Assembly (NCBI GenBank): GCA_013239625.1
Contig: MU053334.1
Coordinates: forward strand, 507,190-571,189
Direction of reading: 5' to 3'
Source: Lama guanicoe
Lineage: Eukaryota
Length of the DNA stretch: 64,000 nucleotides
How positions within the stretch are numbered: the stretch's first letter is position 1; the number at the start of each line of letters is the position of its first letter. Below, piece after piece: positions 15,201 through 53,300 of this stretch. A program made the translations under genes and the position numbers. Under the pieces are notes generated by a model. That model was not told the origin of the DNA. It was given only the letters and a program-made list of their open reading frames with translations, and made no database searches.

Positions 15201-18200
15201 TCCTGCCCTGTGAAGGTGGGAGTGGCGAGGAGGGAGGCCGGTCGCCCACACAGCTCCCCGGTCCCTGTCTCCCGGCCCCTGTGGGCCCCACGGAGCCCCA
15301 GCGGCCCTCAGCCGCCTGCTCCCTGCTCTTCCTGCCGGCTGCTGCTGCTCCGGGGCAGACGGGTGACCGACAGCTGGGGCCCACACGTCCCTCCCCTTAC
15401 AGCCCGGCCACACTGTTCACATCGACTGCCAGGAGTGCACCTGCGAGGGCAGCTCCCAGACTATGCGCTGCCGGAATCAGGCCTGCCCGCCACCCCCCGC
15501 CTGCCCCGAGCCCGGCTTCACGCCTGAGCCTGCAGACCCGCAGCCCGGGCAGTGTTGTCCCCAGTACCACTGTGGTAAGTCGGGGCGTGTGGGGGTCACA
15601 CACGCACTGGCTCAGGGCTGGCCAGCTTTGCCCTGAGGGTCCCGAGGTCCTGGTGCTGCCTCTCCTCCCTCCCAGTGTGGCCCCATCTGGTGACCTCCCG
15701 AGGGAAGGCTCGGGGGTGTGGGCATACCACGAGGTCAGGGTCTCCTCCGCCCCGGCTGAGAGCCCACCACCTGCCCACTGGGTGGTCAGCGCTCAGCACT
15801 CAGGCTGGGGTGGGCGAACACGGGCAGAGTGGAAGGCAGGCCTCCTGACGCCCCCTCCTGTCCACTCTCTGCAGCCTGCAACACCAGTTACTGCCCCCAG
15901 CCCGTGGGCTGCCCCGAGGGCGCCCGCTCCATCCTGACGCACAAGGAGGGGGCTTGCTGCCCGAGCCAAAGCTGCAGTGAGTGTCCTGGCTCAGGGCCCC
16001 TGGGGTGGCCGTCACCAAGCAGTTGTCCAGGGGCCGGGACGCAGTCCTGACGGGTGGGGGCAGCGGCTGCGCAGGAGGAGGTGGGGGTGGGGTGCTGGGT
16101 GATAAGGGTGGCCCTGCAGGTCTGCTTGTCTCCCCCGAGCAGGCTGGACCGTCTGCAGCGTCAACGGCACTTTGTACCAGGTAAGAACCAGCCGGAGGTC
16201 AAGACCCCCGCGGCATACCGGGAGCGGAGGGCCCTGGGCCGGCCAGCTTCTCCCCGAGGCGGGGTCCCCACCTCCGTTTCCCTGGCCAGATCCTTGAGAG
16301 CTCGTGACCTCCCTGAGGTGCAGCCTTGGGGGTCTGTCCCTGAAGCAGGGAGGAGGCACTACCGAGGGTCGCCCCGGGCGGGGCGAGTCAGCCCGGCGGG
16401 GCCAGGCCTGGAGGCAGGGGTACCAGGCCCACTGCGGCTCGCTCACACTGGTCACCCTGGCTCCCCCAGCCTGGCGCCGTGGTCTCTTCCAACCTGTGCG
16501 AAACCTGTCGGTGTGAGGTACCCGGGGGCCCCCAGCCGGACACGTTCGTGATCAGCTGTGAGACCCAGATCTGCAACACCCAGTGCCCGGCGGTAAGTGC
16601 CCGTGCCCACACCCCCGCCCCGGCAGCGCCCAGCCCGGGCTCAGGCCATACATCTGTGCCTCCCTGCAGGGCTTCGAGTACCAGGTGCAAGGCAGCCAGT
16701 GCTGCGGCTCGTGTGTGCAGGTGGCCTGTGTCGCGAACGTCAGCGACGGCTCTGCCATCCTCGTTCCTGTGAGTAGCAGCCACAGGGCCCAGCCCGAGGG
16801 CTTCAGGGTCTTGGGGTGACTTTGGGGCAGGGCAGGCCGCGGGCTCCAGGGAGGCCAGGACTCGGGGCCAGCCCCACCCTCCAGAGGGCCATGAGCCCAC
16901 AGGACGGTGCGGTGCCGGGTGGGCAGTGTCCTGGTGCACCGGGGCCCTGGAGAGCCGTCAGTGCAAGGCCCACCCAGGGCAGAGGCCAGGGGGACCTCCG
17001 GAGGCCCTGGGGCTGGGTGCTAGCAGACAGACGCTGTGCCCTCCCCTGCTGGAACAAGGGCCCTGGGGATGGCCCCTCACCTGCCGGTCGGCCTCCTTGC
17101 AGCCCGGTGAGTCCTGGTCAGACCCCGACAGCCCCTGCGTGACACACAAGTGTGAGAAGCAGCGGGATGTGCTCGTGGTGACGACCGTAAGGAAGGAGTG
17201 CCCCCCCCTCAGCTGCTCGGTGGTGAGTCCCGGCAGCCTGCCCTGCCCAGCGGGGCTGACAGGGGCCACGGGAGGGCCAGGCCCTGGACGGGACGGGATG
17301 GCCGTGGGTGGCCTGGCGCAGTGGGGCAGGGGTGCCGCCTCCTGCGTGGGGCGCTGCCCACGCCTGTCTGAGCCTGGCCTGTGTCCCGCTCCCCGTTTCC
17401 ACGGGGGCTGCCCCAGCACTGACACACTTTGCCCGCACAGGACAAGGCTAGCTTGAGTGAGGACGGATGCTGCCTCTTATGCAACGCCATCGGTGAGTGG
17501 GCGTGTCTGTGGGGGTGGAAGGCAGGGCACTGATTCCCACCTGCCTGGAGGGAGGCCGAGAGTGCCCGCTGGGGCTGACCCTCTGCCCCGCCTCCCGCGT
17601 CCTGTCCCTCCCCAGGGTCCAGCTGCTCCGTGCACCACAAGCACCAGGTCCTCCAGCAGCAGGGCTGCAGCTCCCCCGAGCCTGTGCGCCTCTCCTATTG
17701 CCAGGGCAAATGTGGGGACACCGCCTCCATGTACGTGAGCCCCTACCTTGGTCCGGCCCAGGAGCTCCTGCAGGCAATGTTGGGGAAGACACAGCCTGTG
17801 CCCCCCCAGGGCTCGGGGCAGGCGGATGAGGTGGTGGTGAAGGGGCAGGAATGGGGGAGCTGTAACTGCCACCCCAGACAGCAGGGTCCTGCGGCTGGGT
17901 GGGGGGCTGGGCTGGGCTGGGGAATCATGCCCTTCTGTTGACTGAGACCCCAGACTAGGGGTCCCTGTTCATGGCTTGTGGGACAAGTGGTTGTTGGGAG
18001 CCTCGGGGGGCTGGGATTGAGCCACGGTGACTGGCACATGGAGCCGCAGCGAAAGGCTGTCCACCTGCCTCCAGAGCAGTGGTAGTGCGGGTGCTGCGGG
18101 GGCCGGGCGGCCCCGTAGGCAGCGCCAGTGCTGAGCCGGCCCTGTCCACAGGTACTCGCTGGAAGCCAGCGGGGCGCCGAACAGCTGCCGGTGCTGTCAG

Positions 18201-18470
18201 GAGCTGCGGGTGTCTCGGAGGAACGTGACGCTGCACTGCGCCGACGGCTCCCGCAGGGCCATCAGCTACGCTGAAGTGGAGGAGTGTGGCTGTGTGGGCC
18301 AGAGGTGCGACTCGCCTGGAGACCTCAGCCACTCGGAGGAGTGGGAGCCTGAGCAGAGCGAGGAGCAGAGCGAGGAGCACAGTGAGGAGCACAGCGAGGA
18401 GCAGAGCGAGGAGGAGGCGTGGCAGAAGCACCGGGGAACAGGGGCCCTGGGTCCCAGGCCTCTCCAGTAG
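207..18470 (+). CDS. MUC5AC: Mucin-5AC, 5'-truncated multi-exon gene (37 exons in window, equivalent to exons 13-49): D2-D'-D3, CysD/PTS central exon, D4, VWC, cystine knot
   Basis: Exons read by hand with AG/GT ends and matching phase: 207-276, 354-491, 577-741, 1112-1206, 1679-1805, 2015-2270, 2340-2392, 2670-2770, 2945-3084 (acceptor uncertain), 3180-3318, 3404-3517, 3644-3823, 4467-4706, 4913-5069, 5463-5591, 5817-5979, 6435-6478, 6565-6750, 7401-10805, 11084-11286, 11801-11978, 12339-12589, 12671-12854, 13299-13500, 13981-14159, 14496-14583, 14691-14794, 14979-15010, 15403-15574, 15875-15976, 16143-16180, 16470-16592, 16670-16768, 17103-17222, 17441-17492, 17616-17730, 18152-18470 (TAG). 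Diagnostic: CysD DVSRPGRGTDSGDFDTLENLRAHGY, TTSTTSA-type repeat, D4 GWGDPH, position upstream of MUC5B. Confidence 0.95.
3985..4300 (-). mobile_element. ERVL-MaLR (MLT1-like) LTR remnant in a MUC5AC intron
   Basis: tctcacagctctgg..aagtcc..tcaaggtgtc..ggctctgggggagg..tcctcccgcctcctccagct..tctgcctcc is the reverse-orientation MLT1 pattern; recognised by eye, boundaries approximate. Confidence 0.65.
7401..10805 (+). CDS. MUC5AC: MUC5AC large central exon (3405 nt): 3 CysD domains plus PTS repeats
   Basis: ORF 7391..10843; acceptor ttgccctcag|TC at 7400/7401, donor GCGG|gtacgt at 10805/10806. CysD at about 7544-7840, 8186-8488 and 10337-10651, each with a WxxW motif (WSQW, WTEW, WTKW). Confidence 0.93.
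7883..8050 (+). repeat. 21-bp coding tandem repeat, 8 units (TTPAPG[S/T])
   Basis: accacacctgccccaggttcc repeated; last two units degenerate (TTPAPGP, NTPVPGT). Confidence 0.95.
8690..10297 (+). repeat. 48-bp coding tandem repeat, 33 full units arranged as a 96-bp dimer (TTSTTS[A/E]RTTGPPSAP)
   Basis: Units start at 8690+48n and alternate gcg..tcg and gag..tcc; 60-nt lines recur exactly every 480 bp. Confidence 0.97.
12356..12367 (+). other. GDPH autocatalytic cleavage motif in the MUC5AC D4 domain
   Basis: ggc gac ccc cac within CSGWGDPHY; the paralogous MUC5B site near 55210 reads GNTH, consistent with the gene assignments. Confidence 0.9.
18351..18410 (+). repeat. 12-bp coding repeat x5 (E[Q/H]SE) in the MUC5AC C-terminal tail
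   Basis: gagcagagcgag / gagcacag(t/c)gag units after the cystine knot. Confidence 0.9.
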
Positions 18471-31390: not shown

Positions 31391-31409
31391 CACCAAACAC
31401 GATTCCAGC

Positions 31410-31785: not shown

Positions 31786-33074
31786 AATCCCCAATGGCTC
31801 CCCTGCTTTAAACACCCCGGGAACCCCCACCTGCCAAACTCAGAGCACATCCAGACCCCTCCCTCATCCGACCTTGCCCGCCTCACGTCCAGCGCCCCCC
31901 CCCACCGCCTTGCCCTGCCCTGGCACTGGCACACCCAGTGCCCTCAGACACCCCAAGGGGCCACGTTCACCGCTGCCCCAGGGCCCTGGCATCTGCCCCC
32001 CCGGGGGGCCGCTCCCTAATGTGCAGAAGGCTGCCTCCCTCCTTCCTCCAGCTGGACGCTCACCCTGCCCCTCACCGAGCTGCCCTTCTCTCCATTCCTT
32101 GGAGAGCTCTTACTGCTCCCCTAGATGACCGGGGGTGCGGGAAAGTCCAAAGGGGACCTATGTTCCCTTGTCCGTGTCTAGTCCCCAAGGCCCAGGGCAG
32201 CACCCCTTGGGGCTCGGCAGAATTTGCTAGAAGGAAGAAAGGAAGGAGGGAAGGAGGGTGAGAGGGAGGGAGGAAACAGGCAAGGGGAGGGTTTGTGTGA
32301 AGATCAGGAGAACGCAGAAGGCCTTGGGGCGGTCTCAGTCTTCACACAGGGCAGGGGCCTTCCTGGTGGAGGGTCTCTGCATCCTTGCGGCCCTGGGGCA
32401 GGGTTAGGGGAGTGGGCACAGCCCTTCTCACAGTGAGGACAGCTCTGGGGCCAGGACGGCCAGGTGGAGTGTGATCCGCCCACCCACCCCCCACGTCTCC
32501 TGGGCATCAGCTGGGGCTGCCCAGACCCCCACCCCAGAAGTGGAGGGTCCCCCTCCCTGCAGATGCTGGTGCCCTGGGGAACAGGAGGCCCGTGTCCCTG
32601 GACAGCCTGGAGGTGGGCCCTGAGCCGGCCTAGAGTCAGCCATGCCTTGGATCCCCAGGGCCGCGCCCTGATCATCCTGGACCCTCCCTGGTGTGTGGTG
32701 CGGAGCTGGGCAAACAGCCAGCACTCGATAAATGCCTGAGGCGTGATGCATTCTGGTGCTCGGCGCCCTGTTATGGTGGAAGGGGGGTGGTGGGGAGGGG
32801 TGCACTAGAAGGGGCGCCTTGGCCTCAGCGGACGACCCCGGGCAGCGCCAACCCCCCAGAGACTCCCGTCAGGCCTGATGAATGGGCCTGCAGTGCCCAG
32901 CTCCGGGCTCTGTGCAGTGGGCGTCTCTATCCGCTGGTGGGATCACGTCCACCTGCGGGCTGAGTGAGGGACAGGGCGTGCTCCAGGCCGGGCTGCTTCC
33001 TGGCACGTCCGTGGGCCCCCCCGAGCCCCGGGAGGCCTGGCCGCGGCCCTCCTTCCCGGCAGCCCTCCGCCCAT

Positions 33075-33140
33075 GCTTCCTCCTCCTTCTGTTCTCAGCT
33101 CTCTCAACTGTGAAGGGGTAAACTCTCTGAGTAAACAGGC
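33075..33140 (+). promoter_or_regulatory. MUC5B upstream enhancer, orthologous to the human rs35705950/FOXA2 element
   Basis: cttctgttctcagcTctctcaactgtgaaggggtaaactc aligns without gaps to the human SNP context as I recall it (cttctgttttcagc[G/T]ccttcaactgtgaagaggtgaactc); forkhead GTAAACA at 33131-33137; ~2.2 kb upstream of the TATA-like box. Confidence 0.8.
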
Positions 33141-34969
33141 TGGGCTCCCCGGGCCACATCCGGGATGTCCCAATCCCGCGACCCTGTCAGGCCCTCACCG
33201 CCAGCTCTGCCCGGGGGACGGCACTCCAGGAGGGAGGGGTGGCGTTGGACCACAGCGGCGGCTGCCCTCTCCCTCACTCCTCCGTGCATTTGTTGAGTGC
33301 CTACTGTGTGCCAGCCGTGAACAGACGGCCCCGCCCCCCCGCCTGGAGAGCCCCTCTGGGTGGGCGGGCAGGATGGACCATACCCCCAAAGTGTGGAGGG
33401 ATAGCAGAGTCCAGGCCGAGGCGCCCAGGCTGCTCTCGTGGCAGGGGGCTCGGGGCTGCGCTGCGTGGGCACTGGGGCTGGCGGGGCCCCTCCGATGGCT
33501 GCGGGGTGAGGATGTGCCAGCCGGGAGGGCGACGGGACACAGCCTGAGAGTCAGGCCTTCGGAGGAGGCGAGAGGAAGCCAGGCCACGAGGGCTCAGGCT
33601 GAGGGGCCGAGATTCCCTGCCTCCTTTCTCCCTTCGGGGGCAGCCTGGCGTCCGAGCCGTGTGTACTCCCCACCCCCAGGAGGGACTGGGCGCCATCACA
33701 TTACAGAGCACCTGCTGTTTGCTTGGAGCGAGGGCAGGGAGGCCAGGTCCAGCTGTAGCCCGAGTACACAGGAGGGCGGGGGCCCCAGGCCCCTAGTGCA
33801 CCCCCCGGGCCTGTCCTGAGAGACCCCCGGCCCTCCCCCAGCGTCCCCTCCACCGGCGCCCTCTGCATCGGGACAACTGGGCTGGCTATGAAAGGGAACT
33901 CTGGAGACGCCAAACGCCCCAGCTTCAGGAGCCATCAGCCTTGGAGGTGACAGGGAGGTCGGGGGAGGAGGAGCCGAGGGCAGCCTGAGCGCGGCCCTGG
34001 GGTCCCAGAAGCGGGCAGGTAGTGGGGTCTGGGCCTGAGCTGGGACGCGGGGCCCAGGCCTGCAGGGACCTGGGCCGGGAGGCGCGGGCCAGCCCGGTGC
34101 AGGCGCGCCTGCTGTGAGGACACCAGGAGCCAGAGGGGAGAGCAGAGCCGCGGGCCCTCAGCCGGGCTGGGCGCGACGCCGGCAAAACACGGCTAAAGCT
34201 TTCACCACAGGTTTCCCTTTGCCCAGAAATTTCACTTTTGTGGACTTGTCTTCAGGGAGACCAAGGCTGGCGGGGGCGGGGGCGGGGCCCTCAGCTGTTA
34301 ATCACACAGCCCTGGAACCCACTCTCCTCCGCGGGCCGGTCAGAGCCCGGCAGCCCGAGCGTCCCGCCGGGTCGCGCCGCCGACAGCGCTCAGGCGCACC
34401 AGGTGCGGGGGGAGGACGCCCAGGAGCGGGCAGACCGGAGGAGGAGGGTGCTCGCCGGGGAGAGGGGCGTGCAGCTGCGGTGCTGCAGGCAGGGCGCTGG
34501 GGGACGAGCCACCAACGAGGGGAACAGTCACCATGTGACCTGAAACCCTACCACCCCAGCTGTGGGGCTGGGCCTCCACGACCCGACCTGGGGCAGGCCC
34601 TGGGGTTCAGAAACCCCGGCCCCGCAGGCGCCCCCCGTCAGCACACCTGGGAGCCCGGGGGGACATCACTGTGCACACACAGTCCCCACACATTCTGTGC
34701 GGCCAGGGCGTCCGTCCCCAGAGCCTTGGTTTCCCCTCGAGCTTGAAGTTGGTGACTCAGGCGCCCAGAGACCTGCAAGGGCACTGCTGGCACGGCCAGA
34801 GCTCCGGGACCCCCGCAAGCCCTCCACAGAAGGCAGCCACACCCCTAGCTGAGCCGGAGCCCCCACTAGCCAGGCACAGCAGGGACCAGCAGCCCCTCCC
34901 GACCCCTCAGGGTCCGAAGCTGCCTCCCCTCCAATCCCTCCTCACAGCCTCAGCCAGGCTCCCTGCAGG

Positions 34970-35379
34970 GGCTGACGTGGGGGCTGAGTGTGAGCCGCGG
35001 GGCCACGGCGAGGGGCACTCCAGAGGCCTGAGGCGGCCCCGCTTGGCAGCGGCTTTGCCTGTGCCACCCTCCCGGCCCCAGTACACCAGTCCATCCACCC
35101 TCTCCCTTCTGCTTCTCAGAGGCTGCTGGGGGCGGGGGTCCTGCGTTTCTGGAGCTCAGAGCCACAAACCCTTCCTCCTCTGGGCTCTTTCATGCCACGG
35201 CCCCTCCCCGAGAGCAAACACACGTGGCTGACGTGGGGAGAGGACTGCGCCCTGCGTGGCCCAGGAGCCGGGCGCAGGGCCAAGGCTTCCTGCTACATAA
35301 GCCCCAGCGCCCTCAGGGGAGCGAGCACCGGGCCCCACTCCCGCCTCGCCGCCCGCCCACCGCCGTGCCAGCCCCTAGG
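34970..35379 (+). promoter_or_regulatory. MUC5B proximal promoter and 5'UTR
   Basis: TATA-like TACATAA 35294-35300 (same motif described for human MUC5B); forkhead GCAAACA 35214-35220; CACGTGGC 35221-35228; TGACGTGG 34973-34980 and 35229-35236; NF-kB-like GGGGCACTCC 35012-35021. Confidence 0.85.
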
Positions 35380-38300
35380 ATGGGCGCCCCGAGTGGGTGC
35401 CGAGCGCCAGTGTGGGCCCTCGCGGCCCTGCTCTTGGTGCAGAAGGCAGGTAAGGTGGAAGCCCCTCACTCCACCTCTGCAGTGGGGGTGGCCTCCACAG
35501 ACCACCCGCCTGAGTTTCTCCTGCCCGTGATGGACGTGGGCCCCCCTTGGGGCCCTGCATCGCATCCCGGACACCCAGCCCCTGGGTGCTCAGCCTGTGC
35601 TGGGAGAAGTTGGGTCCCCTGGGGCAACCGAGGGTCTTGGCCTCGGTTGGGACGGAGCAGGCACTGGGTGAGGAGCCTAGGCTGGGGGTCTCTCTGGTCC
35701 CCGAGAGGCAGCCACAGCAGGGTGGGCAGGGACAGCACAGTCGCCCGGCCAGCCGGGGGCTGCACCTTCTGCTCTAGGCCCTCTGAGGCCGGCCTGGGGG
35801 AACAGCCATCAGGGCGGCTCTGAAACGCCTCCGGAGTAAGGCTGGAATGGGGCAGACAGCGAAGGGCCCCACCCAGGAGCAGGGACCATCTGAACACACT
35901 CTGTTCCTGGGGCCACACCTGCCCCGCGGCCTTTCTCGCCCGCCGTCCCGCTGGCCAGCGGCACCCCGCGGCCCGGGGAAGCACCTTGAGCCCTGACGCT
36001 TACTGTCAACACGCAAGGTGCTGTCCCTGGGCTGCCGCCCACACCCGGGGAGCTGGCCTGCAGCCCGGGCCTTCAGAGGCCACCCACAGTCCGCTCCTGC
36101 AGGCCCTCCAGGCGCCTCACCTGAGCTGAGTTCTGGGCAGGTGGGGCCAGCCTGAGGCTCCCTTTACCTGTGAAAGTGAGGGGATGAAGCGGGAGGGTTG
36201 TCTCCCAAAACCCCTGCCCCAGGCCCCCTTTCTCAGGGGAGTGAGCAGGGCTCGTGGGGGCTTTCCCCTAGCAGCTCCTGGCTGGGGGTCCCTGCACTGA
36301 GGCAGTTCCTGTGGAAACAGGGCCCTTCGGGAGAAGAGACCCTGCCCGCCTGAAACCCCGTGGTTTCTCGACCGTGGGGTGGGGCCGACAGCTGCGGAGC
36401 AGCTGTGCTTCTGGGAACTGCAGGCAAGCAGGGCCCTGGGGAGGGGAGACAAACGCGGCTGGCCCCGTGGTTTCCAAGTGTCGGCGTCCCGGCTGGAAAA
36501 GTCGAAGAGAGCAGAGCCCACTGTGACCGCTACAGAGATGGGCACAGCACCCATCGCCGGCCCCACCAGGGACACGGGCACCTCTGGGGCTTCACCTCCC
36601 GCTCCCCACGAAGCACAGGCTTGGGCTGAGCGTGGAGATACGCCCCCACTGCAGACATGAGGAAAGAATTCTGAGACCATGTGAACGGGGGCACCCCAGG
36701 CTTAGCCTGGTGGAGAGGGGCCTGGAGAGGCGCTCAGGCCTGTCCACTGAGGCAGCGGGACACTGGAGAGGTGCGCCTGGTGGATGAGGCCCTGCCAGGA
36801 GGTGGGGGGCACACAGGTGGCCTCTGGGGACCGTGCCAGCACCAGGGCCTCCAGGCCTCCCGCGTGCCTTGGAGGGTGATTCTAGGCGGAGCTGCTGTGT
36901 CTTGGGTTTCTGCTAAGTCACTCTGGGGATCCTCCCCAACTGTGTGCGTCTTTGTCCCCAACAAAGTGAGCCTTTGTCCTTTTCCGAGGGCCGTGTGGGA
37001 AGGGGTCGAACATTCTCCCTGGGGTGGCCTGGGTCAACGAGACCAACAGTGTTTCCCAATTTCAGTCCCCTGCTCTGAGCCACAGTGAGATGGGGTGTAG
37101 ATGGGGAGGGTGGGGTCAGCTCCCCACGGGACCTGCCATCCCGACAGCAGGGTCCACGTGGCTGCCATCCTGCGGGCCACGGACACCCCTGAGCCACTGA
37201 GGGAGGGGTGGCCAACGTCTGGCTGCTCATGGCCTCCCACTCCCTTTTCCCGCAGAGACCTGGCACAGCCTGGAGCAGAGCGTAGACAGAGCCGAGCCTG
37301 TCGTGTACAGCCCGCGGGTGCACGGGGGTATGGCCCAGGCTGGGGGAGGAAGGGCCCTGGGAGCCGAGCAGGGGTGGGGGGCAGACCCCTTCGCATGTCA
37401 GCTACACAGGGACCACCCCTGGATTCCACGGGAGGGGACAGTGGACGGGGCCAAAGAACACAAAGGCACAGAGCAAAGAGGCTCAAATGCTCACACGCGC
37501 TCACGCACGTGATCACACACGTTCACACCCACACGCTTGTGCTTGTGTTTGCCCATCACTCTCTCTCACATGTGCACACTCACACATTCAGGAACACACT
37601 CATACAGGGCCCCAGTCACACGTATGCACACCACATACACAATCAGGGTAACACGGACCTGGGAAGGGCTGTGTCCAGGGTGGACAGGAAGGGTCCCAGA
37701 GGGGACAGCGTTAGCCCTGGGGCTCCCTGGGCAGGGTCAGGGCTGGCCTGCAGCTCCCTGCGGCACCAGGGTGGCCAGTGAGGAGGACAGGGGTCTGGGG
37801 AAGGGGTGTCCCGGCTGGTCCTTGCCTGGCCACATCCCTGGTGTGACCGGGCCCTCACTCCGCAGCCCAGCGCGTGGCCTTCCTCATACCCATCGCTGTC
37901 TTCCCCACCATGAGCTGTAAGTGGACGCCAGGGCAGGGGTGCTCACAGCCCGGGGGGGTAAAGCTGGCATGGGGGTGGGGCAGCCAGCAGCTGGACGGCT
38001 CTGAGCATGGCTGGGAGCCTTCTCGGTGGGTAGCTCTCCTGGTGGCTGACCCCAGGTGCTGTGGCAGGGGGCAGGGCCGTTGGGGTCTCGGGAAGAATTA
38101 GGAACAGGGGGAGCGAGGAGGGGCGCAGGGGCTCCCCGCCCCCAACCCGGGGGCTTCGTCCCAGGGAAGGCTGCCCTCTCCTGACCCTGCGCTCCCCGCA
38201 GCCCTGAATGCGGCGCACAGTGGGCGGGTGTGCAGCACCTGGGGCGACTCCCACTACAAGACCTTCGACGGCCACCTCTTCCGCTTCCCCGGCCTGTGCA

Positions 38301-41300
38301 ACTACGTCTTCTCCGCGCACTGCGGGGCCGCTTACGAGGACTTCAACATCCAGCTCCGCCGTGGCCTCGTGGGCTCCAGGCCCATCATCACCCACATCGT
38401 CCTCAGGACGCAGGGGCTGGTGCTGGAGATCGCCAACGGCTCTGTCCTCATCGACGGGCGGCGGTGAGCCCAGCTCCGGGGCGCAGAGGGGCCTGGGCTC
38501 CGGGCGGCTCGGGGCGGGGCGGGCGCCAGACCTGAGGGGGGATCGGAACTCTCTGCCCCAGGGAGGAGCTGCCCTACAGCCGCCCCGGCCTCCTGGTGGA
38601 GGGGAGTCACGTGGACGTGAAGATCAGCCTCCGGCTGGGGCTGACCTTCCTGTGGAACAGAGAAGACAGTGCCCTGGTGAGGGTGCCACCCATGCCTTCC
38701 CCTCCCGGCTTGGGGAGCTCCGCAGGGGCGGGGTCGGAGGGGGCTGGGGGCCCTGCCAGGCCAGCAGAGGCTGGAGCTGCCCCTCCCCTGCCCCCAGCTG
38801 GAGCTGGACCCCAAGTATGCCAACAAGACATGTGGCCTGTGCGGGGACTTCAACGGGCTCCCAACCATCAGCGAGTTCCACACCCACAGTGAGTGCGCTG
38901 CACACAGCAGCCCGCCTCGGGCCAGACCGGCCCAGGAGGCCGGGGGGTGCAGGCTGAGGGCCTCGTGCTGGGCAGTGGACAGGGGGCAAGTCGGGGGTGG
39001 CAATACTCAATCCGGCGATGCCCCGGGGCACGGGCAGGGAGCCCCTCGGTGCCCCCTGCATGGACTGCCTCCTCTCTGCAGACACTAGGCTGACCCCGCT
39101 ACAGTTTGGGAACCTGCAGAAGCTGGATGGGCCCACAGAGCAGTGCCAGGACCCCCTGCCCTCCCCGGCTGACAACTGCACTGATGAAGTGAGTGCCTCT
39201 CCAGGGGCCCTGCCTGCCTGACGCCCCTGCAAGCACAGACCATGCCCCACATAGTCCCACCGAGAGTGGGGCACTCAGCAAGCCTGGGGCAGAAGCCTTC
39301 CCGATGAGCGGGGAGGATCCCACCTTAAGAAGTGGACTTGAACTCCAGGATCCCCGAAACCACCAGAACCCACAAGCTTAAATAAGGACGCGGAGCCGGT
39401 CGGGGCGGGGGCTGAAGGCCACTGGCTGAGCACGGAGGACACCTCTGCCTCCCCCTCCTCCGAGCTGCCTCCAAGGGCGAGGTCTGCTCCTTTTCTGGGT
39501 GCTCACACAATGGGCAGGTGTGTCCTGGAGCCCTGGCGGGGTGTGGGGAGTCCAGGGCTGTGGTCACTCCTCAGAGCCAAGCAGAGCTCTGAACCCAGCA
39601 GTGGTGAGTTCATGGTGGTTGAGGAGAAGGATGGGTGGACGGCTGGCTGGCTGGCTGGAGGGACGGGTGGATGGATATATGGATGGACAGAGGGATGGAA
39701 GGGTAGATGGTGGATAGATGGACGGATGAGTCGGTGGATGGATGGAAGGACGGAACCTCAAGGAGAGGAGGGGGCTTCCTGGCCTGGGTAAAGCCTGCAG
39801 GGCTGGGGTCCCCACAACATCCCGCATGGAGGGCAGAGGGTGCCCAGTCTCTGTCTCCCCAGGAGGGCCTCTGCCGCGGGACCCTGCTGGGCCCGGCTTT
39901 CGCTCAGTGCAACAGGCTGCTGGATGTCGAGCTGTACGTGGCCGCCTGCACCCAGGACCTGTGCCGCTGCCCTGCCTGCCCCTGCGCCACCTTTGCCGAG
40001 TACTCCCGCCAGTGCGCCCATGCCGGGGGGCAGCCGCAGAACTGGAGGGGCCCCGACCTCTGCCGTGAGTGTCCCCCTGCACTGGGGGCCAGCCCCGGGC
40101 CCTGCACCCACACTGGGTCTCTGGGGAGAGCGTGAGGGAAGTGACCCTGCGCAGGACACCTGGCTTCTGGCTGGGGGTCCAGGACAGGTGGAGCCACCCT
40201 GGGAGCAAGAGGATGGGCAGTGGGGCAGAGGGGAGTGTGCGAGGCTGCTGCCTTGGAGGGCCCAGAGGGGCACCTGGCCTGGGCACCGCCAGCTTGCTCA
40301 CCCCCAGGACCCAGGTGGGTGCAGGGGGGCTGTCCCTGCAAACACTGGGCCCCGCGCTCTCCTCACCGCCCGCCTCACCCAGAAGACTGCTAGATGGTAC
40401 GAGAGGCGCTCATTTTGGGGACCGTCGGTGACACATGGAATGCAGCAGCAGAGGTGGGCCCGCCACCCACATGGCTTCCTGGGGCTAAGTGCTGCCTCCT
40501 CCCTGCAGCCCAGACGTGCCCCCTGAACATGCAGCACCAGGAGTGCGGCTCGCCCTGCATGGACACCTGCTCCAACCCCGAGCACTCCCAGCATTGCGAG
40601 GACCACTGCGTCGACGGCTGCTTCTGCCCCCCAGGCAGGTTCTCCGGGCTCTCGGGGACTGTCCACAACCTGGGCCTTTGCCCTCATCCCTGGGGCTGCC
40701 TCTGGTCACTGTCTTTCCACCTCCCCACCCCAACCTCAGCTGACTGGCTCGTGTCCCCCCCCACCGCTCCCCAGGCACCGTGCTGGATGATGTCACCCAC
40801 ACAGGCTGCCTGCCCCTGCAGCAGTGCCCCTGCACCCACAGCGGCCACACCTATGCCCCGGGGGACTCCTACACCACCAGCTGCAGCTCCTGGTAGCTCC
40901 CCTGCCGGCCCTGCCTGAGGGGTGGGGATGCCCGGGGTGGGGTTTGCCCCCTCACCACGACCTCTGTCCCGACCTCCCCTACCCAGCACCTGCTCCGGGG
41001 GACTATGGCAGTGCCAGAAACTCCCGTGCCCGGGCACCTGCTCTGTCCAGGGCGGGTCGCACATCTCCACCTACGACGAGAAACTCTATGACATCCATGG
41101 GGACTGCAGCTACGTCCTGACCAAGGTGAGCCCCTCCAGGGACCCTGCGTCCTTGGCCCAGGGAGGGCCCCAGCATGGCCATCAGAGCCGTGAAGCCCCC
41201 TGGGGTCCATTCCGAGAGGGAGGCCCCAGGGCTCACATTCATGGGGGACCGAGGGACTCTCAGGCTCCGAGACGGCTGCCCAGAGGCAACCGCAGGTACC

Positions 41301-44300
41301 AGCGCCAGCTCACCCTGCCTGCCCACACTCGGCCCTCCCTGCCTGGGTTGGGGGCTGGCCGACCCCAGTACATAGGTGGGCTCTGCCTTGTTCAGAAATG
41401 TGCGGACAACACCCTCACGGTGCTGGCTGAGCTGCGGAGATGTGGCCTGACCGACAATGAGAACTGCCTCAAAACGGTGACGCTGAGCATGCACGGAGGG
41501 GACACGGTGAGTGTCCCAGGCTGGGGGGACCGGGGGGGAGACAGGCCCCAGGGGCAGCAGCCATCCCTGGGGTGGGGGAGGCTGGCCCCTGCCCAGTGCT
41601 CCCTCAGTGGGCCGACAGGCTCTTGCCCACGCTGACCACAGCCCCACCTCCTCCCACTAGGCCATCCGGATCCAGGCCAACGGTGCTGTGTTCATGAACT
41701 CCATCTACACCCAGCTGCCTGTGTCAGCGGGTACGTGGCTCCTGCCGCTTGGGGCCAGCCGGGTCCCTCGCTAGTTCCTTGCTAGCTCAGAAGGTTCCAG
41801 AACATCCACTCCCAGGGCTGGTTTCTCACCTGCAAGGTGGGGGTGTCAGGGGCCTCCCCTGGGGCCCTGTGGGGACCCTGTATGGAGCACGCTTGGTGCC
41901 CAGCCTCTCGGGGGCGTCAGTGGTCGTGGCCCCAGGAGCACATGCGAGCTTCCGCATGGCTCCCAGGCCCCGGAGGGGTGGCGGGGGTCCACCGGGCGCC
42001 CTTCAGCAGTGGCCATCCCAGGAGCCCGCTGCTAAGGCCAGGCGGTCAGCGTGGCCGGGCTCTGACTGCGCCCTCCCCCACCCCACCCGCAGCCAACATT
42101 ACCATCTTCAGACCCTCGTCCTTCTTCATCCTGGTGCAGACGGGCCTCGGGCTGCAGGCGCAGGTGCAGCTGGTGCCCCTCATGCAGGTGTTCCTCAGGC
42201 TGGACCCCTCCTACCACGGCCAGATGTGCGGTGAGGCTCAGTGGAGGGTGTGGGAGGAGCAGTGGGGCGGGGCAGGGGGTGGGCAATCGGGCAGGAGAAG
42301 GGGACCCCCGCCCCACACCAGCCGCCACGGAGGGGGCGGTGGGCTGGGAGGATGGAGAGCAGGCTGCCCTCGCTCAGCGGGCTTCGCAGGGCGCTCCCTC
42401 CCCATGCCCCAGGGCTCAGCTGCAGGCACTTCAGCAACTGGTCCTGAGACGGGGCTCGCCCACCTTGCGGTGGTGCCTGTAGGACCTGCGGGGCCGGGGC
42501 ACTCAGGCTGGGCTGGGTGGGCCACTGATGCCCACCCCCCACCTCCCACCCCCAGGCCTGTGTGGGAACTTCAACCAGAACCAGGCGGACGACTTCCGGA
42601 CCATCAGCGGCGTGGTGGAGGGCACAGCCGCCGCCTTCGCCAACACCTGGAAGACCCAGGCCGCCTGCCGCAACGTCAAGAACAGCTTCGAGGACCCCTG
42701 CTCCCTCAGCGTGGACAACGGTACCCTGCCCTGGGGGCCCTTGGGTCTCCATGGGGCCAGGCCTGGGGGTTGCCCTTCTGTGCAGGAGGCTCTGCGCAGC
42801 TGGGGCCGGGGGTGAGCAGGAAGGGCGCAGGGGGCCCGAGGGGCTGTGAGCCCGTCTCGAGGAAGGTGTCCTGCTGCCGGCCAGCCCCAAGCTCCAGTTC
42901 AGTTTCCCGGGCGGAGGGGCCCCCGCAGACCTGTGTGGGCCAAGCAGAGGCTAGGTGGGTGGGCAGGCGCAGAGGGGGACATGTGGGAAGGAAGCCAGTG
43001 ACCCTGAGCTGTGCCTGGTGACAGCCACCCCCCAACCCCCGCAGAGAACTATGCCCGGCACTGGTGCTCCCTGCTGACCAGCCCTGCCGGGGCCTTCTCA
43101 CCCTGCCACGCCATCGTCAACCCTGCGCCCTTCCACTCGGTGAGAGCCCTGGCCCGCCCCCAGAGTGGGGTGGGGTGCTGGGGGCAGCATCTGCCCCTGG
43201 AGCTGCCCCCCAGGCCCCCCTCAGGCTCCTGCTCTCAGGCACCGCCCACACCTCCGTGGCCAGTGGGTCCCACTCTAGGCCTGCTCTGGGGTCTTCGCAT
43301 GGTCCCTGCTGGTGTGTTCCTTGCCTGGGTGACCTGTAACGAAGGACCACAGACTGGGGCTGAAAGCTGGAGCCATCTACCCTGCCCCCTACCCCAGTCC
43401 TGGAGACGAGATTTAAAATCTAGGTCCTGGCAGGATGTCCTAGAGGATCCTTCCTGTCTCTCCAGCTTCTGGGGCCGCGAGGCTGCCTCTCGCCAGCCTC
43501 TGCCGCGTCTTCACGTGGCCTCCGGGTTTGCCTGGGTCCCAATTCTTTCTCACAGGGACACCAGGCCCACCCTAGTGACCCCTCTTGACTTCATCACCCC
43601 TGCAAATGCCCCATTTCCAGCAGGGCCACCGCCACAGGCCCCGGGGTCACGATATGGACACGTCTTTTGGGGTGACAGAACGTCACCCGCTGCAGTTGGC
43701 TAACAGGTCACTTTTCTGGGAGCCAGAGCCCTAAAGCGCACCCGACCCCAGCCCCCAGGGGCTGGGTCCACAGGTGGAGACGCAGGCCCACCTCAGCCCA
43801 TTTTGAGGGTGACACACCCTCCTGTCGGCCCCTCCCCACCCTGGCCACGCCCCACATGCAGCACAGCTCGTGACGGGCCTAGGATTCAAGCTGGACCCCG
43901 TCCTGGTCCTGCAGAGACCCCTCTCCTTGGCCCCATCCTCAGCCCCTCCCGACCCCTCAGAGCAGTGTGTCCCTCCCGTGGCTCCACGTCAAGCTCGGGG
44001 CTGCCCTACGGGAGGCCCCGCCCACCTGCTTGCTGGCCCAGGCCAGGGCACCCAGAAGGATGGACGGGGAGAGAAAGGCCGCTGGGGGGCTGGGCTCCCT
44101 GACGTCCCGACCCCCTGACATCCCCGCAGAACTGCATGTTCGATACGTGCAACTGTGAGAAGAGTGAGGACTGCATGTGCGCTGCTCTGTCCTCCTACGT
44201 GCGGGCCTGCGCCGCCAAGGGCGTGCTGCTGAGCGGCTGGCGGGACGGCGCGTGCAGTAAGTGTGCCCTGAGTGTGCCCAGGCGGGGGCGGGGGTTCTGG

Positions 44301-47300
44301 AGACCCGGGGCAGCACCTCACCTCTGTGTCTGTCCTCAGTGAGAAACTTGTGCCTCCCCTTCTTGTCCAAACAAGAGCCGCGTGCTCTTATGACCCAGGT
44401 TCCAGAGGGGAATCGAGGCCTGGGCCACTCCAGCCCCAGCTTGGACGTGGTAAGGCGAGGCCGATGGGCTGCCCGGCCACTGACCTGCGTGTTGCCCGCC
44501 TGCCCCTAGCCAGGTACGCGAGCAGCTGCCCCAAGTCCCAGAACTACTCCTACGTGGTGGAGAGCTGCCAGCCCACCTGCCGCTCCCTGAGCCAGGTCGA
44601 CGTCACCTGCGACGTGGCCTTCGTGCCTGTGGACGGCTGCACCTGCCCCTCGGGCACCTTCCTGGACGACGCCGGTGCCTGCGTGCCTGCCAAGGACTGT
44701 CCCTGCTACTCCCGCGACTCCGTGGTGGCTCCTGGGGAGGTCCTGCATGACAACGGTGTGGCGTGGTAAGGGCCCCTCCCCATGCCACCTCCTCCCCGAC
44801 ATCATGTCCCCCACCCCGCCGGCTCCACACGGAAACATCTCCGTCTGGGGCCCATGGGTGGGGCACAGTGTATGCCCATGGGGTGAGCCGCACTCACTCT
44901 GGGCCTGGGCTGGGCGCATGCCTGCCCTGGCCCCCCCATCTCCTCCCACTCCCCATCGCTGCCCTCCCCTGTGACAAGGCCCAGGGACTAAGCACGGCGG
45001 AGGCTGGAGTGGGGCCTGGGGGGCAGGGGCAGCTGCCCAGCCCTGTCGTCTCCCTCCCCTCATAGCTTGTGCGCCGACGGCAAGCTGAGCTGCCTGGGGT
45101 ACGAGGAGCAGAGCACAGGTACACCTCCCCATTGGCCTCCCCAAGCGACAGAAGGGCGGGGCTCCCGCGGGTGGCCGGCCCCTCCCACCGAGCCCTCCCT
45201 CCGCAGGGTGTGTGGCCCCCATGGTGTTCCTGGACTGCCGCAACGCCTCTGCCGGCTCGCCCGGGGCCGAGTGTCTCCGCAGCTGTCACTCGCTGGACGT
45301 GGACTGCGTGAGTCGAGGGGAGGGCAATGGGGCTGTGCTGCCCCCAGGCCTAGGCGTCTGCCAGCCCAGGGCGGGCAGCGGCCCCTCCCCTCGGGGTCCC
45401 TGAGCAGCCACGGGAGGGACCGAGCCACTGACGGGCGCCCACCTGTCCACAGTTCAGCTCTCACTGCGTGTCTGGCTGCGTCTGCCCCCCGGGGCTGGTG
45501 TCGGACGGGAGTGGGGGCTGCGTGGCCCAGGAGGACTGCCCCTGCCTGCACAACGAGGTCGTCTACAAGCCTGGGGAGACCATCCGCGTCGACTGCAACA
45601 CCTGGTGGGTGGGGGCTGCAGAAGGGAGGGCGTGGGCAGAGGCTACGGGGCGGCAGCCCCAGCTGGTCTGGGCAGCGCGCCGTGCCTGCGGCTGGGGCTG
45701 GGCAGGAGCTGGGACCTTGATGGCCCCGGGTGGTCGGTTCGTCCTGGGGAAGGTGCTCCCAGAGGGGCTTCAAGACGCCAGGGCCGGTCAAAGCAGCCGC
45801 CAGGACCACAGACCCTGCACCCCGGGCACCAAGGGCTGGGGAAGCCTGGAGTCAGGACCACAACTAGGGAGTGGGGTGCCAGACCCCGAGCGCCGAGCTC
45901 GCAGCCTCATTTACGCCCTTGAGAAGGGGGAGGGGCATCGCCCATGACCCCACTTTATAGAAGAGGGGCTGGGTTCCCGTCCTTGTCACGGGCATGACAG
46001 GGCTCAGCCGTAGCTGCCCGGTGGGTGGGCTCCCTTCCTGGCCCGCTGAGCGGGGCATCGCCTCCCCTCGCCTCGCAGCACGTGCAGAAGCCGCAGGTGG
46101 GAGTGCACCCGCCAGCCCTGCCTGGGTACCTGCGTGGCCTACGGAGACGGCCACTTTATCACCTTCGACGGCGAGCGCTACAGCTTCCAAGGCAGCTGCG
46201 AGTACTTGCTGGCCCAGGTACGGCCCCTCGCCCACCCCGCCGCCGGCACACGCTCTTTGGGGCCGCGACCCACGCCCCCACCTCCTCTCCCGTCCCAGGA
46301 CTACTGTGGGGGCAATGGCACGGCCAACGGGACCTTCCGCATCATCACCGAGAACGTCCCCTGTGGGACCACAGGTGTCACCTGCTCCAAGGCCATCAAG
46401 CTGTTCCTGGAGGTGAGGGGGCCTGGGAGCCTCTCCCTCCCTCTGCAGCTGAGGGCCCCATCCTATTGGAGCCCCAGCACAGGGTCCTCCAGCTGCATCT
46501 GTGTCTTGGGGCCACTGTAACAGAGGACCACAGCTTGGGACTTAAAACTGGAGAAATTCATTCTCTTCCAGCCCTGGGGCCAGAGATCTGAATTCAGTGT
46601 CACTGGACTGAAATCAAAATGTCACAGGGCCAGGTTCCTTCCAGAGGCTCCGGGTGGGGAGGGGTCCTTCCTGCCTTGTCCAGCCTCTGGGGGCTCCAGG
46701 CGGGCGCTCCTGGGCTGTGGCCGCGTCACCCCCGTCTCTGCTCCGTCTTCACACGGCCCCCTCCTCGGTGAACTCTCTTCTCTGACAGGGACACCTGTCA
46801 TGGGATCTGGGCCCTAAATTCAGGGTGCTCCCTCCTCGAGATCCTTCACTTAATCACACGTGCAAAGACCCTTTTTCCAAATCAGGGCACATTTAGGGAT
46901 TCCGGAGTTAGAGCGTGGACATGTCTTTTGGGGAGAACACCGCTCAGCCCACCACACCTGGGGATGCCCACTTCAGCGTTCACAGCAAAGAGAGCAGAGC
47001 TGCTGGCTGGGGGCTGTTGCCCCCTTCCCAAAGGCAACATGGGGGGGCGGGCTGCGGCAGGGCCATGGGGCCGATGTCCCCCTCTGCTTGCCTGTGGCCC
47101 CCGACCTTCCGCACCGCCTCTGCCGGCTCCCAGCCTCTCACCTCAAGTTTGTGGGTGGTGTCAGGAGCCCAGCTCTTTCCTAACACTAGCCCGTGCCTTT
47201 GGCCCCTGAGCACCCTGGGGCCCCCATCCTGGGCATGGGGTGGGGAAGGGGTGCTGGCCACTCAGCTCCCTGCAGCTGCTGCCTCCCCCGTGCCCCTCTG

Positions 47301-50300
47301 CAGAACTATGAGCTGGTCCTCCACGAGGGCACCTACAAGGTGCTGCAGAGGGCGCCAGGTGGGCACCAGCCCTTCAAGATCCGTTACATGGGCCTCTACC
47401 TGGCCATCGAGACCCGCAGCGGCATGATCCTGTCCTGGGACCGGAAGACAAGCGTGTTCATCAGGCTGAACCAGGATTACAAGGTGGGGGGCGGACAGAG
47501 CTCTCACCCCTAGACCTAGGCCTTCGGGGTCCCCCTGGCAGTTGGGTGTCTGCTGAGGGCTGGGGGAGGCCATGCACAGGGCAGGTCCCCAAAGGGGCGT
47601 GTGAAGACCAGACCTACCGGTGGGCGCGAAGCACTCTTGGCTGCCTGGTCTCTGCACTCAGCCGCTCCACGCCAGCTGGGCTGAGGTCTCCAGGGGGGCA
47701 GGTGACTGTGCCTCTGGTGGCCACCCACCTGCCGGCATACCTTCCTGTCCACCTGCCCCCTGCCTGTCCCCCTGCTGACCTGTCTCCCTTCCTGTGCACC
47801 TGCCCACCTCCCTTCCTGCCCATTGCAGGACTGCCTGTGCACCTCATCTTCCTGATAGTTCACTGGGGGAACCAGGTACCCTGCAGTCACCCCTTCTGGG
47901 CCAGGCTCTGTGCTCGGGCCACCTGTATAGCCCCCATGCCCCCATCTCTGCGTCCACAGGGGAGGGTCTGCGGGCTGTGCGGGAACTTTGATGACAACGC
48001 CCTCAACGACCTCACCACGCGGAGCCAGTCCGTGGTGGGCGACGTGCTGGAGTTTGGCAACAGCTGGAAGTTCTCCCCGTCCTGCCCGGACGCCCAGGAC
48101 CCCGAGGACCCCTGCACGGCCAATCCGTACCGCAAGTCCTGGGCCCAGAAGCAGTGCAGCATCATCAGCGGGGACGCCTTCAGCGCCTGCCGTTCTCAGG
48201 TGAAGCAGGAGGGGGAGGGGCCTGGCTGGGGAATGGCGGGGGCTGCCCCCTCCTCTCCTGGCAGGACCTGGGTTTGGCCCTGTTTTTACCCTAACCGTTA
48301 CACATGATCAGCACCTCCCACTAGGCAGGCGCCCATATCCCCAGTCCTGCAGAGAGCCCCCCACTGCTTTCCCTGACCACACTAAGCCATTTCCCCAGAA
48401 ACGGGCTGTGAGCCACACAGTGTCACCAGTGTCACCCCCTCGCCTCCCTTCTTCCCACCTCCCTGATTTACCAGCCCCCAGCACTAATGGAAGCCTCAGG
48501 GGGCCCTCCAGCCCAGCCGGGCCTCATGGGAGCAGAAGACAGTGATGTCCTTGGACACTCTTCCCCAAAGCCCTTCCTGTTACCTAACAAGGACTGCAGT
48601 GCCCACCTGTGAGCAGGGTCTCATGACCTGGGACCCGCATAGGGATGAGGAGGGCGGCTTGGCAGGAAGTCTGCAGCTGACGCTGGTGGTCACGTGAGGC
48701 CCCAGGTGTCCTGCCCTTTGGCTCAGAAAGTCCTTTGTGAACCTGACATAGTGGTCCCTTCCCCAGATGGTGTCATCCATGGTGGCAAACTCAAGACATG
48801 GGTGCCCTGGGCTCTGTCGCCTGGGAGGGACGGGGCGTCCCCTCACCCTGAGGAGACAGCACCTCATTTGTCAGGACAGAGTCACAACAGGGTCACGGGG
48901 AGGGCTGGCTTGCAGTTGCATGAGGCGTCAAACGGGTGAGGGACCAGGGGCAGGTGCCTAGGTGGGCACGTCTCCAGTGGCAGGTGAGGTCGAAGTGCAA
49001 ACAGGGAGCCGGCTGCCCCTGACACGGGGGGTGGCCCTTCTCACCAACCCCCCCCCCACCTGCCACCCCCAGGTCGACTCCACCAGGTACTATGAGGCCT
49101 GTGTGAGCGACGCCTGCGCCTGTGACTCTGGGGGCGACTGTGAGTGCTTCTGCACGGCTGTGGCCGCCTACGCCCGGGCCTGCCACGAAGCGGGCGTGTG
49201 CGTGTCCTGGCGGACCCCGGACATCTGCCGTGAGTCAGGCTCTGTCCGTGGTGGCGGGAGGAGGTGCAGCCACACCTGCTCTGGGGCCTGATGGGCACGT
49301 ATGCACGCACACGGACATCAGACACACATGTGATACACACGTGTGCACGTGTCCCCGTGCGTAGAAATCAGACAGGTCACCCCCAGACGGGATGGCTTAG
49401 TTGGGGACAGTTCTGAGTGCAGAGCTGAGAAATGAAACTGGAATTCGGGGGGTGGGCTCTGGAGCCCACTCGACTCTGGGATGAACCCAGGGATGAGACC
49501 CGGGCAGGCGCCCACGAGCCTCTCCTCCCCACCCAGCCTTGTTCTGTGACTACTACAACCCGCACGGGGAGTGTGAGTGGCACTACGAGCCTTGTGGGGC
49601 CCCCTGCCTGAGGACCTGCCGGAACCCCAGTGGGCAGTGCTCCATGGACCTGCCGGGCCTGGAAGGTGAGGCGCAGGCTGCTCCGGGGAAGCCACACCTT
49701 GCCACCCCAGGACAGAGTACAGGCAAGGGGGAGAGGGGCTCCTGCCTCCCGCATACCCACCTGGAGACCCGCAGGCAGAGGCGGGCTGCCGGCGGGGCAG
49801 CACTGGACACCTGGCCTGAGAAGGCGTCTTCTCCTCGCCCTGTGCCCGCACCAGGCTGCTACCCGAAGTGCCCGCCCAGCAAGCCATTCTTCAACGAGGA
49901 CGAGATGAAGTGCGTGGCCCAGTGCGCCTGCTACGACGAGCATGGAAACCACTACGATGTGGGCATGAGGGTCCCCACTGCGGAGAACTACCAGAGCTGG
50001 TGAGGAAGCTGGGGTGGGGGCGTGGTCTGGGTGGTGTGGGGTCTGGGTGGTGGTGGGGTCTGGGNNNNNNNNNNNNNNNNNNNNNNNNNNNNNNNNNNNN
50101 NNNNNNNNNNNNNNNNNNNNNNNNNNNNNNNNNNNNNNNTCTGGGCGGGGTGGGGCGGGGCCGGGAAGGCAGGGCTACTGGCCTGGTCCCCAATGGCCTT
50201 TTCTTCTCCCAGTGTCTGCACCTTCCGAGGCCTCCAGTGCACACACAGCCTGGCGGGTAAGGAGGGCCCTGTTTGTTTGGGGGCTGGGAGCTGGGGGCTC

Positions 50301-53300
50301 CGAGTGAACCCTGAACCTGTCCATCTCCAGACTGCAAGTGCACCTACCAGAACACGACCTACAACTACGGGGACGTCATCTACAACACGACTGACGGGCT
50401 GGGCGCCTGCTTGATTGCTGTCTGTGGAGACAATGGGACGATCACCCGGGAAGCCGTGAGGTGTCCTGGAACCCCGTCCACGACACCCTTCACCTAGACC
50501 AGCATCACCTCCACCCCCACCCCCATCACNNNNNNNNNNNNNNNNNNNNNNNNNNNNNNNNNNNNNNNNNNNNNNNNNNNNNNNNNNNNNNNNNNNNNNN
50601 NNNNNNNNNNNNNNNNNNNNNNNNNNNNNNNNNNNNNNNNNNNNNNNNNNNNNNNNNNNNNNNNNNNNNNNNNNNNNNNNNNNNNNNNNNNNNNNNNNNN
50701 NNNNNNNNNNNNNNNNNNNNNNNNNNNNNNNNNNNNNNNNNNNNNNNNNNNNNNNNNNNNNNNNNNNNNNNNNNNNNNNNNNNNNNNNNNNNNNNNNNNN
50801 NNNNNNNNNNNNNNNNNNNNNNNNNNNNNNNNNNNNNNNNNNNNNNNNNNNNNNNNNNNNNNNNNNNNNNNNNNNNNNNNNNNNNNNNNNNNNNNNNNNN
50901 NNNNNNNNNNNNNNNNNNNNNNNNNNNNNNNNNNNNNNNNNNNNNNNNNNNNNNNNNNNNNNNNNNNNNNNNNNNNNNNNNNNNNNNNNNNNNNNNNNNN
51001 NNNNNNNNNNNNNNNNNNNNNNNNNNNNNNNNNNNNNNNNNNNNNNNNNNNNNNNNNNNNNNNNNNNNNNNNNNNNNNNNNNNNNNNNNNNNNNNNNNNN
51101 NNNNNNNNNNNNNNNNNNNNNNNNNNNNNNNNNNNNNNNNNNNNNNNNNNNNNNNNNNNNNNNNNNNNNNNNNNNNNNNNNNNNNNNNNNNNNNNNNNNN
51201 NNNNNNNNNNNNNNNNNNNNNNNNNNNNNNNNNNNNNNNNNNNNNNNNNNNNNNNNNNNNNNNNNNNCTCCACCCCCATCAGCTTCACCTCCACACACCC
51301 CCCCACCTCTACCACCACCACCACCATCACTGCCACCCCTACCCCTAGCCACAGTCAGGGCACAACCAGCTGTCAACCCAAGTGTCAGTGGACAGAATGG
51401 TTCGATGTGGACTTCCCAACCTCGGGGATCCCAGGTGGAGACATGGAGACCTATGAAAATATTAGGGCTGCGGGCGGCAAGATGTGCAGGGAGCCAAAGA
51501 AGATCGAGTGCCGGGCGGAGAGATTCCCCGAGGTGAGCCTGGACCAGCTCGGGCAGGTGGTAACCTGCAGCCTGCAGGCCGGGCTAGTCTGCTGGAATGA
51601 CGACCAGACGGCACCGTTCAACACTTGCTTCAACTACAACATCCGCCTGCTCTGCTGTGACGACATCCGGCACTGCCCCAGCACGGCCACCCCTGGCCTC
51701 AGCTCAGCTCCCAGCCCCACCCACAGCAGCACTGCCACCTGGGGCTCCAGACTGACACTGTCACCACCATCAACCTCAGCCACCACCGAGACCCAGACCA
51801 CCTCCCTCAGGACCTCACTCACGACCACCTGGCTGGCTTCAACCCATGCACCCTCCACAGCCCAAAGTCACACCAGCTCGGGCTCCTCCATGGCCACTTC
51901 CACGGCCACAGTGACCGAGACCTCCTCCCTCCTGACCCCCAGCCCCACGCCGACCCCCGGGTCCACAGCCTGTCAGACGGACTGCACCTGGACGGAGTGG
52001 CTGGACCACAGCTACCCGATGCCAGGAGCCTCCGGCGGGGACTTCGAGACCTATGCTAACATCCGGGCGGCCGGTGGGGCCGTCTGCGAGCAGCCTGTGG
52101 CCATCGAGTGTCGGGCCGAGATGCAGCCGGACGTCAGCGTGGAGCAGCTGGGCCAGGTGGTGCAGTGCACACTGCAAGAGGGCCTGGTGTGCCGGAACCA
52201 GGACCAGAGCGGCCAGTTCAAGATGTGCTTCAACTACCAGATCCGTGTGCGCTGTTGTGACTACAGCCATTGTACCGGCCCTACTGTCACCAAGGCCACC
52301 ACGCTGGCCTCCACAGCCTCCACCCCCAGCAGCAGCATAAGCAAGGGGTCATCGACGGCGACTCCACCCTGGACCACGGCCACCTCCCAGACGCACGTCT
52401 CCTCTCCTGCGACCACCGAGAGGGTCTCTACCACCACCACTGAGTCAAGACCTTCCTCCACGGGCACCACCACCACAGTGACCGAGACCTCCTCCCTCCT
52501 GACCCCCAGCCCCACGCCGACCCCCGGGTCCACAGCCTGTCAGACGGACTGCACCTGGACGGAGTGGCTGGACCACAGCTACCCGATGCCAGGAGCCTCC
52601 GGCGGGGACTTCGAGACCTATGCTAACATCCGGGCGGCCGGTGGGGCCGTCTGCGAGCAGCCTGTGGCCATCGAGTGTCGGGCCGAGATGCAGCCGGACG
52701 TCAGCGTGGAGCAGCTGGGCCAGGTGGTGCAGTGCACACTGCAAGAGGGCCTGGTGTGCCGGAACCAGGACCAGAGCGGCCAGTTCAAGATGTGCTTCAA
52801 CTACCAGATCCGTGTGCGCTGTTGTGACTACAGCCATTGTACCGGCCCTACTGTCACCAAGGCCACCACGCTGGCCTCCACAGCCTCCGCCCCCAGCAGC
52901 AGCATAAGCAAGGGGTCATCGACGGCGACTCCACCCTGGACCACGGCCACCTCCCAGACGCACGTCTCCTCTCCTGCGACCACCGAGAGGGTCTCTACCA
53001 CCACCACTGAGTCAAGACCTTCCTCCACGGGGACCACCGAGGGGGTCTTCACCCCCACCACTGAGACCCATCCCTCTTCCACGGGGACCACCCAGAGGGT
53101 CTCCACTCCCACCACTGAGTCCCGTCTCTCCTCCACGGGGACCACTCAGAGGGTCTCCACCCCCACCACTGAGTCCCGTCTCTCCTCCACGGGGACTACC
53201 GAGGGGGTCTCCACCCCCACCACTGAGACCCATCCCTCCTCCACGGTGACCACCGAGAGGGTCTCCACCCCTACCACTGAGTCAAGTCTCTCCTCCACGG

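Follow-up and report, generated by a model that had tools for sequence, protein, structure and literature searches.

A T opposite human rs35705950 in the MUC5B upstream enhancer of a camelid, probably the normal base of its lineage

The guanaco (Lama guanicoe) carries a T opposite the human G/T polymorphism rs35705950 in a region upstream of MUC5B, and we consider it likely that this T is the lineage-normal base of a known MUC5B enhancer, not a disease allele, and that it defines no risk group. The window, that is, the whole stretch of 64,000 nucleotides analyzed here (assembly GCA_013239625.1, contig MU053334.1, positions 507,190 to 571,189), holds the end of one mucin gene and the length of the next, and the region at 33075 to 33125 between them is identified, from its flanks and its position, as the camelid orthologue of the MUC5B “-3 kb” enhancer (Table 1). 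For a T of this kind, a precedent in the ferret has already been published. Fixation of the T, activity of the enhancer, and lack of a disease effect are what we infer, and nothing shows the camelid T to carry risk.

Position 33100 of the window is T. We compared the surrounding block by eye with the human context of rs35705950 printed for a TaqMan assay (PMC10341926), with which a guide sequence in PMC7934873 is concordant, and 40 of the 50 flanking bases are identical in an ungapped alignment (19/25 on the 5′ side and 21/25 on the 3′ side) that sets T33100 opposite the SNP. This is where a sequence-only reading of the same DNA had put it, and the human context that it gave agrees with both printed sources as far as their available passages extend. 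With per-base match probabilities assumed at 0.25 to 0.35, a 40/50 match would arise by chance somewhere on the two strands of the window with a probability of about 7e-11 to 1e-5. Counted from the SNP position, the nearest mismatches lie at -6, +2, +3, +16, and +20, which bears out the earlier remark that two neighboring bases also differ (+2 and +3); carry-over of allele-specific motifs would call for identical neighbors, and those at +2, +3, and -6 are not. As with human rs35705950-T, and as had been claimed, the position lacks a CpG, because C33099 is followed by T33100; the closest CpGs are at -32 and +50. CpG decay as the origin of T33100 was considered and rejected, since deamination of a CpG yields TG or CA, not CT.

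Table 1. Features of the window around the candidate camelid MUC5B enhancer, all on the forward strand
Feature	Position	Strand	Basis
3′ part of upstream gel-forming mucin gene, MUC5AC by position	1..18320	+	Gene order; C-terminal exons to about 18320
STAT-like site, 14 bases identical to the stretch under human primers at the tested STAT site	32997..33010	+	Pattern search and human primers
Pyrimidine tract closed by AG, counterpart of the acceptor annotated for exon 2 of human lncRNA AC061979.1	33070..33098	+	Candidate acceptor, sequence
51-bp orthologue of the human rs35705950 context, MUC5B upstream enhancer core	33075..33125	+	40/50 flanking match
T opposite the human G/T SNP, no CpG at the position	33100..33100	+	Sequence compared with human context
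+2/+3 bases unlike human; with T33100, a short TC dinucleotide run (33100-33105)	33102..33103	+	By eye
GTAAAC half-match to forkhead motif, next base T; human G at +20	33118..33123	+	Sequence
FOXA-type site, full GTAAACA core; human counterpart has C for the core T	33128..33137	+	Pattern search
Palindromic ETS/SPDEF-like site	33157..33167	+	Pattern search; flanks match human ETS mutagenesis primer
TATA-like box of MUC5B; start site inferred about 30 bp downstream	35294..35300	+	Sequence
MUC5B coding region from the ATG through the last exon with a match; AATAAA follows at 61474	35380..60917	+	tblastn with dromedary MUC5B

T33100 lies 2280 bp upstream of the MUC5B ATG, within the MUC5AC-MUC5B interval and at a distance between 2 and 3.5 kb from the gene. 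The TATA-like box from which the start is placed is one of two copies in the window, the other falling within an L1-like stretch, and we take it to be like the human MUC5B TATA box. Farther upstream, the segment from 26400 to 31400 (about 5 kb, A+T-rich, A-skewed, and separated from the enhancer core by about 1.7 kb) is by its look presumably an old LINE-1 relic, with what we take to be a second L1 3′-end-like piece at about 30020 to 30340, and the stretch at 31450 to 31700, judged by eye, presumably represents an old MLT1-type LTR fragment. No Rfam family matches the window between 31500 and 35100. The distance to the inferred start is about 2.2 kb here versus 3.07 kb for the human enhancer, and Table S2 of PMC9781688 puts the corresponding distance of the SNP position in human, macaque, rat, and mouse at 2894 to 3093 bp.

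The position also touches a human promoter lncRNA, AC061979.1, in which rs35705950 is base 2 of exon 2 (Neatu et al. 2022, PMC9781688). The camelid region is like the human one in having a pyrimidine tract with AG and the conserved start of exon 2, and the tract before the AG at 33097 to 33098, with 19 pyrimidines in 20 bases, ranks at the top of the 558 YAG sites between 20500 and 35150; it is unlike it in that the acceptor is known here from sequence alone. According to the available text of PMC9781688, splicing of AC061979.1 was not apparent in an RNA-seq survey, and its conservation outside primates is confined to the 5′ end of exon 2.

By tblastn, the alignment of the dromedary MUC5B protein begins at the ATG at 35380, with a mean identity of 83.3% over 25 N-terminal HSPs, many of which extend into introns; bat, whale, and squirrel entries average 65 to 69% against the same gene. 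Over 12 clean exons, the dromedary identity is 649 of 672 residues (96.6%), a figure biased upward because those exons were handpicked. A protein distance of at least 3% from the dromedary suggests, given usual divergence levels, a South American camelid over Camelus. The best PDB match of the exon at 38198 to 38464 is human MUC5B (E value of 3e-56), followed by MUC5AC (8e-51). A CysD query from the central exon scored higher with the human MUC5AC CysD (106 bits) than with that of MUC5B (73 bits), but we set aside a MUC5AC reading and discount this preference, because the MUC5B sequence matched is just one CysD construct of 100 residues and MUC5B is favored by the N-terminal exon. A query with the central exon returned 16 proteins among 8000 scored candidates, limited to 644 to 2000 residues. 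A horse UniRef entry labeled Mucin 5AC reaches 82% identity with the MUC5B gene (53700-60900) and 37 to 47% with the upstream gene; since MUC5B-labeled entries show the same preference, its label is probably a mislabel. By these matches, the gene starting at 35380 is camelid MUC5B.

The upstream mucin has an open reading frame at 7301 to 10843 that carries CysD and PTS repeats, including an array at 8679 to 10288 of 33.5 copies of a 48-bp (16-aa) unit, 95% identical, in which two unit types alternate regularly. The central exon of MUC5B (about 50.2 to 53.8 kb) is short, and the assembly has probably collapsed it. Two N gaps (50065-50139 and 50530-51267) lie at its start, a near-exact tandem duplication of a CysD and PTS block of about 567 bp lies at 51950 to 53100, and a 54-bp repeat follows at 52978 to 53421. 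Among JGI metagenome contigs, a MUC5B exon query found three loci of 32 to 46% identity, distant VWD relatives, and a degenerate pattern of the shared enhancer core found no match.

Around T33100, three putative factor-binding sites stand in the human order, the STAT-like site 5′ of the SNP position, the FOXA-type site downstream of it, and the ETS-like site 3′. The supplement of Gally et al. (2021; PMC7934873) lists primers from which the human counterparts can be placed, namely the forkhead stretch and the STAT and ETS sites that were tested; for ETS, where only the mutagenesis primer is printed, the human wild-type core is inferred. Each site occurs once in the window, against 0.03 (STAT), 0.01 (FOXA), and 0.07 (ETS) matches expected and with matches in 3, 1, and 7 of 100 shuffles, respectively, for patterns that were picked after both sequences were in view, and the ETS-like site is the weakest of the three. 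The FOXA site just downstream that the sequence-only reading had described is present, as are the two forkhead-like words on which it remarked, but only GTAAACA at 33131 to 33137, one of four copies in the window on both strands, is a full consensus; GTAAAC at 33118 does not make up RYAAAYA because its next base is T. From the SNP position, the FOXA-type site spans +28 to +37 here versus about +37 to +46 in human, a spacing inferred from primer offsets to within 1 bp (PMC7934873 supplement), and therefore about 9 bp appear to be missing here.

There is also a second FOXA-type 10-mer at 32707 to 32716, about 390 bp upstream of the SNP position. The span from -82 to +191, onto which we place the human differentially methylated region by way of an approximate hg19 coordinate, contains 17 CpGs in the camelid, none of them at the SNP position. 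The human region is described with 11 CpGs in a review (PMC6594326).

With the STAT-like, FOXA, and ETS-like sites in the human order, the known enhancer is, as far as its motifs tell, intact here. Like the human -3 kb element, the camelid one belongs to MUC5B, shares the core sequence, and lies in CpG-rich surroundings. It is unlike the human element in its shorter distance to the start, in a T that appears to be its normal base, in the changed +2 and +3 bases, in the closer FOXA site, and in lacking a human 9-bp stretch that includes a second forkhead-like 7-mer. For the human element, enhancer activity, open chromatin, and Pol II loading have been demonstrated in airway cells, and mutations of the STAT and ETS sites lowered its activity (PMC7934873).

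A T in a second nonprimate lineage has been reported. A preprint (bioRxiv 10.1101/2024.06.04.597198) states that ferrets natively carry rs35705950 TT, and a workshop report (PMC10878386) repeats this, citing a 2020 abstract; the passages of the two that make the claim give no data for it, and a term search of the journal version of the preprint found no match for “native,” “allele,” or “risk-conferring.” Like the camelid, the ferret is, by these reports, a nonprimate mammal that normally has T at the orthologous position. The two differ in that one is a mustelid, known here from a report of TT and not from the neighboring bases, and the other is a camelid represented by its DNA, with no expression or fibrosis model attached. 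An alignment of human, primate, pig, sheep, and rodent (rat and mouse) sequences appears in Fig. 3B of PMC9781688, whose legend puts the conserved blocks downstream of the SNP. The available text of Hancock 2018 says nothing on the mouse base at the SNP position, and that of PMC7349241, PMC13702648, PMC11344006, PMC13191303, and PMC6299094 nothing on the base in other species. A literature search, itself weak, yielded among the matches listed no publication on the camelid base or the ancestral state at rs35705950.

To judge how common the T is, we use the share of 105 sampled words from the region that is held by each of 24 sequencing runs. Nine runs, from five studies and under three organism labels, hold all of the words; five more, which add a fourth label, hold shares of 0.97 to 0.98. 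Six runs of RNA type have shares of 0.05 to 0.10 and count as no evidence, three hold none, and one is not indexed. One SNP removes about 3.4 words. With random sampling, position 33100 would escape every sampled word with a probability of about 0.027, and the nine full-holder runs therefore probably all have the T. Eight of the nine are flagged as possible sources of the window DNA, though they are different samples, and the word shares come from contigs, which drop rare or heterozygous alleles. Read from these shares, T33100 looks common or fixed in the lineage.

Two alternatives concern the base itself. We judge it very improbable that T33100 is an error of assembly or a minor allele that this individual happens to carry. 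The window comes from one assembly and has N gaps elsewhere, and 5 of the 14 complete or near-complete holders lack two to three words, equivalent to about one SNP somewhere in the kilobase, the word shares giving a count and not a place; against this, nine different samples under three organism labels hold every sampled word. We give slightly more credence, while still regarding it as improbable, to T33100 not being the strict orthologue of the SNP, with a 1-bp deletion and a 1-bp insertion between the anchors, aided by the TC run. Of the four bases between the anchors, three differ from the human G allele (two from the T allele), and an alignment with two gaps, made by eye, leaves just one mismatch. 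The anchor-to-anchor spacing is nonetheless the same as in human, the 50 flanking bases align without gaps, two compensating indels are the less parsimonious account, and T is also reported in the ferret.

The remaining alternative accepts the base and gives it the effect it has in human carriers: the T would be functionally risk-like and raise camelid MUC5B output, by a lost methylated CpG or by a gained C/EBP or XBP1S response, so that the animals would be natural high expressers. The CpG is truly absent at 33100, the FOXA core is a full consensus, and the same argument has been made for ferrets; for the human T, a preprint reports, in its available text, lower local methylation and higher reporter output after in vitro methylation in human A549 cells, and predicts a C/EBP-beta site. 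Yet the differing +2 and +3 bases would fall inside most motifs that span the SNP, and in A549 reporter assays and CRISPR clones, neither reporter activity nor MUC5B mRNA differed between G and T (PMC7934873, in the passages available). An editorial that describes a greater response of T to XBP1S calls the evidence for the variant's role limited. In the available account of a German necropsy series that had no comparison group, only 4 of 223 South American camelids are listed with pulmonary fibrosis, and one of the four had vitamin D intoxication. This reading as a whole seems to us unlikely. Because the human allele effect is absent in the A549 reporter and CRISPR experiments and present after in vitro methylation, it is context-dependent. 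The sequence-only reading had suggested that this species may carry the risk-like state, and of this, the locus, the position, the CpG loss, and the nearby FOXA site hold; a surprising or functional risk state does not, given the ferret T in print, a T that looks common or fixed, the differences in +2/+3 and FOXA spacing, and the context dependence in humans. In dogs, the available part of a fibrosis GWAS shows no more than a weak signal at MUC5B, and rs35705950 goes unmentioned in it.

Under the preferred reading, a lineage-normal T, the camelid enhancer most likely works as in humans, with FOXA, ETS/SPDEF, and STAT factors binding in a stretch of about 170 bp. The T would leave no CpG to methylate at the position, and any brake given by the human G allele would for that reason be absent. 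The rest of the enhancer would have evolved with T present, including the changed +2/+3 bases, the closer FOXA site with its full consensus, and the 17 other CpGs nearby; as T would then be the background state among other changes, output would be set by the whole element.

Together, ferret and camelid hint that T may be ancestral, on the strength of two lineages, one of them second-hand. We consider it possible, though less likely than not, that T is ancestral in laurasiatherian and perhaps all placental mammals; the human G with its CpG would then have arisen later as a methylation brake, and the IPF risk allele would restore the older state. Were it so, the “native TT” of ferrets would be ordinary, and lineages with T could reveal which neighboring changes buffer the allele. 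If T is widespread in nonprimates, native carriage of the risk allele would be weak ground for choosing a pulmonary fibrosis model, and it would be worth checking which way the base changed at the strongest IPF risk site. The camelid element, with its T, altered +2/+3 bases, and shifted FOXA site, offers a natural variant with which loss of the CpG could be separated from gain of a binding site.
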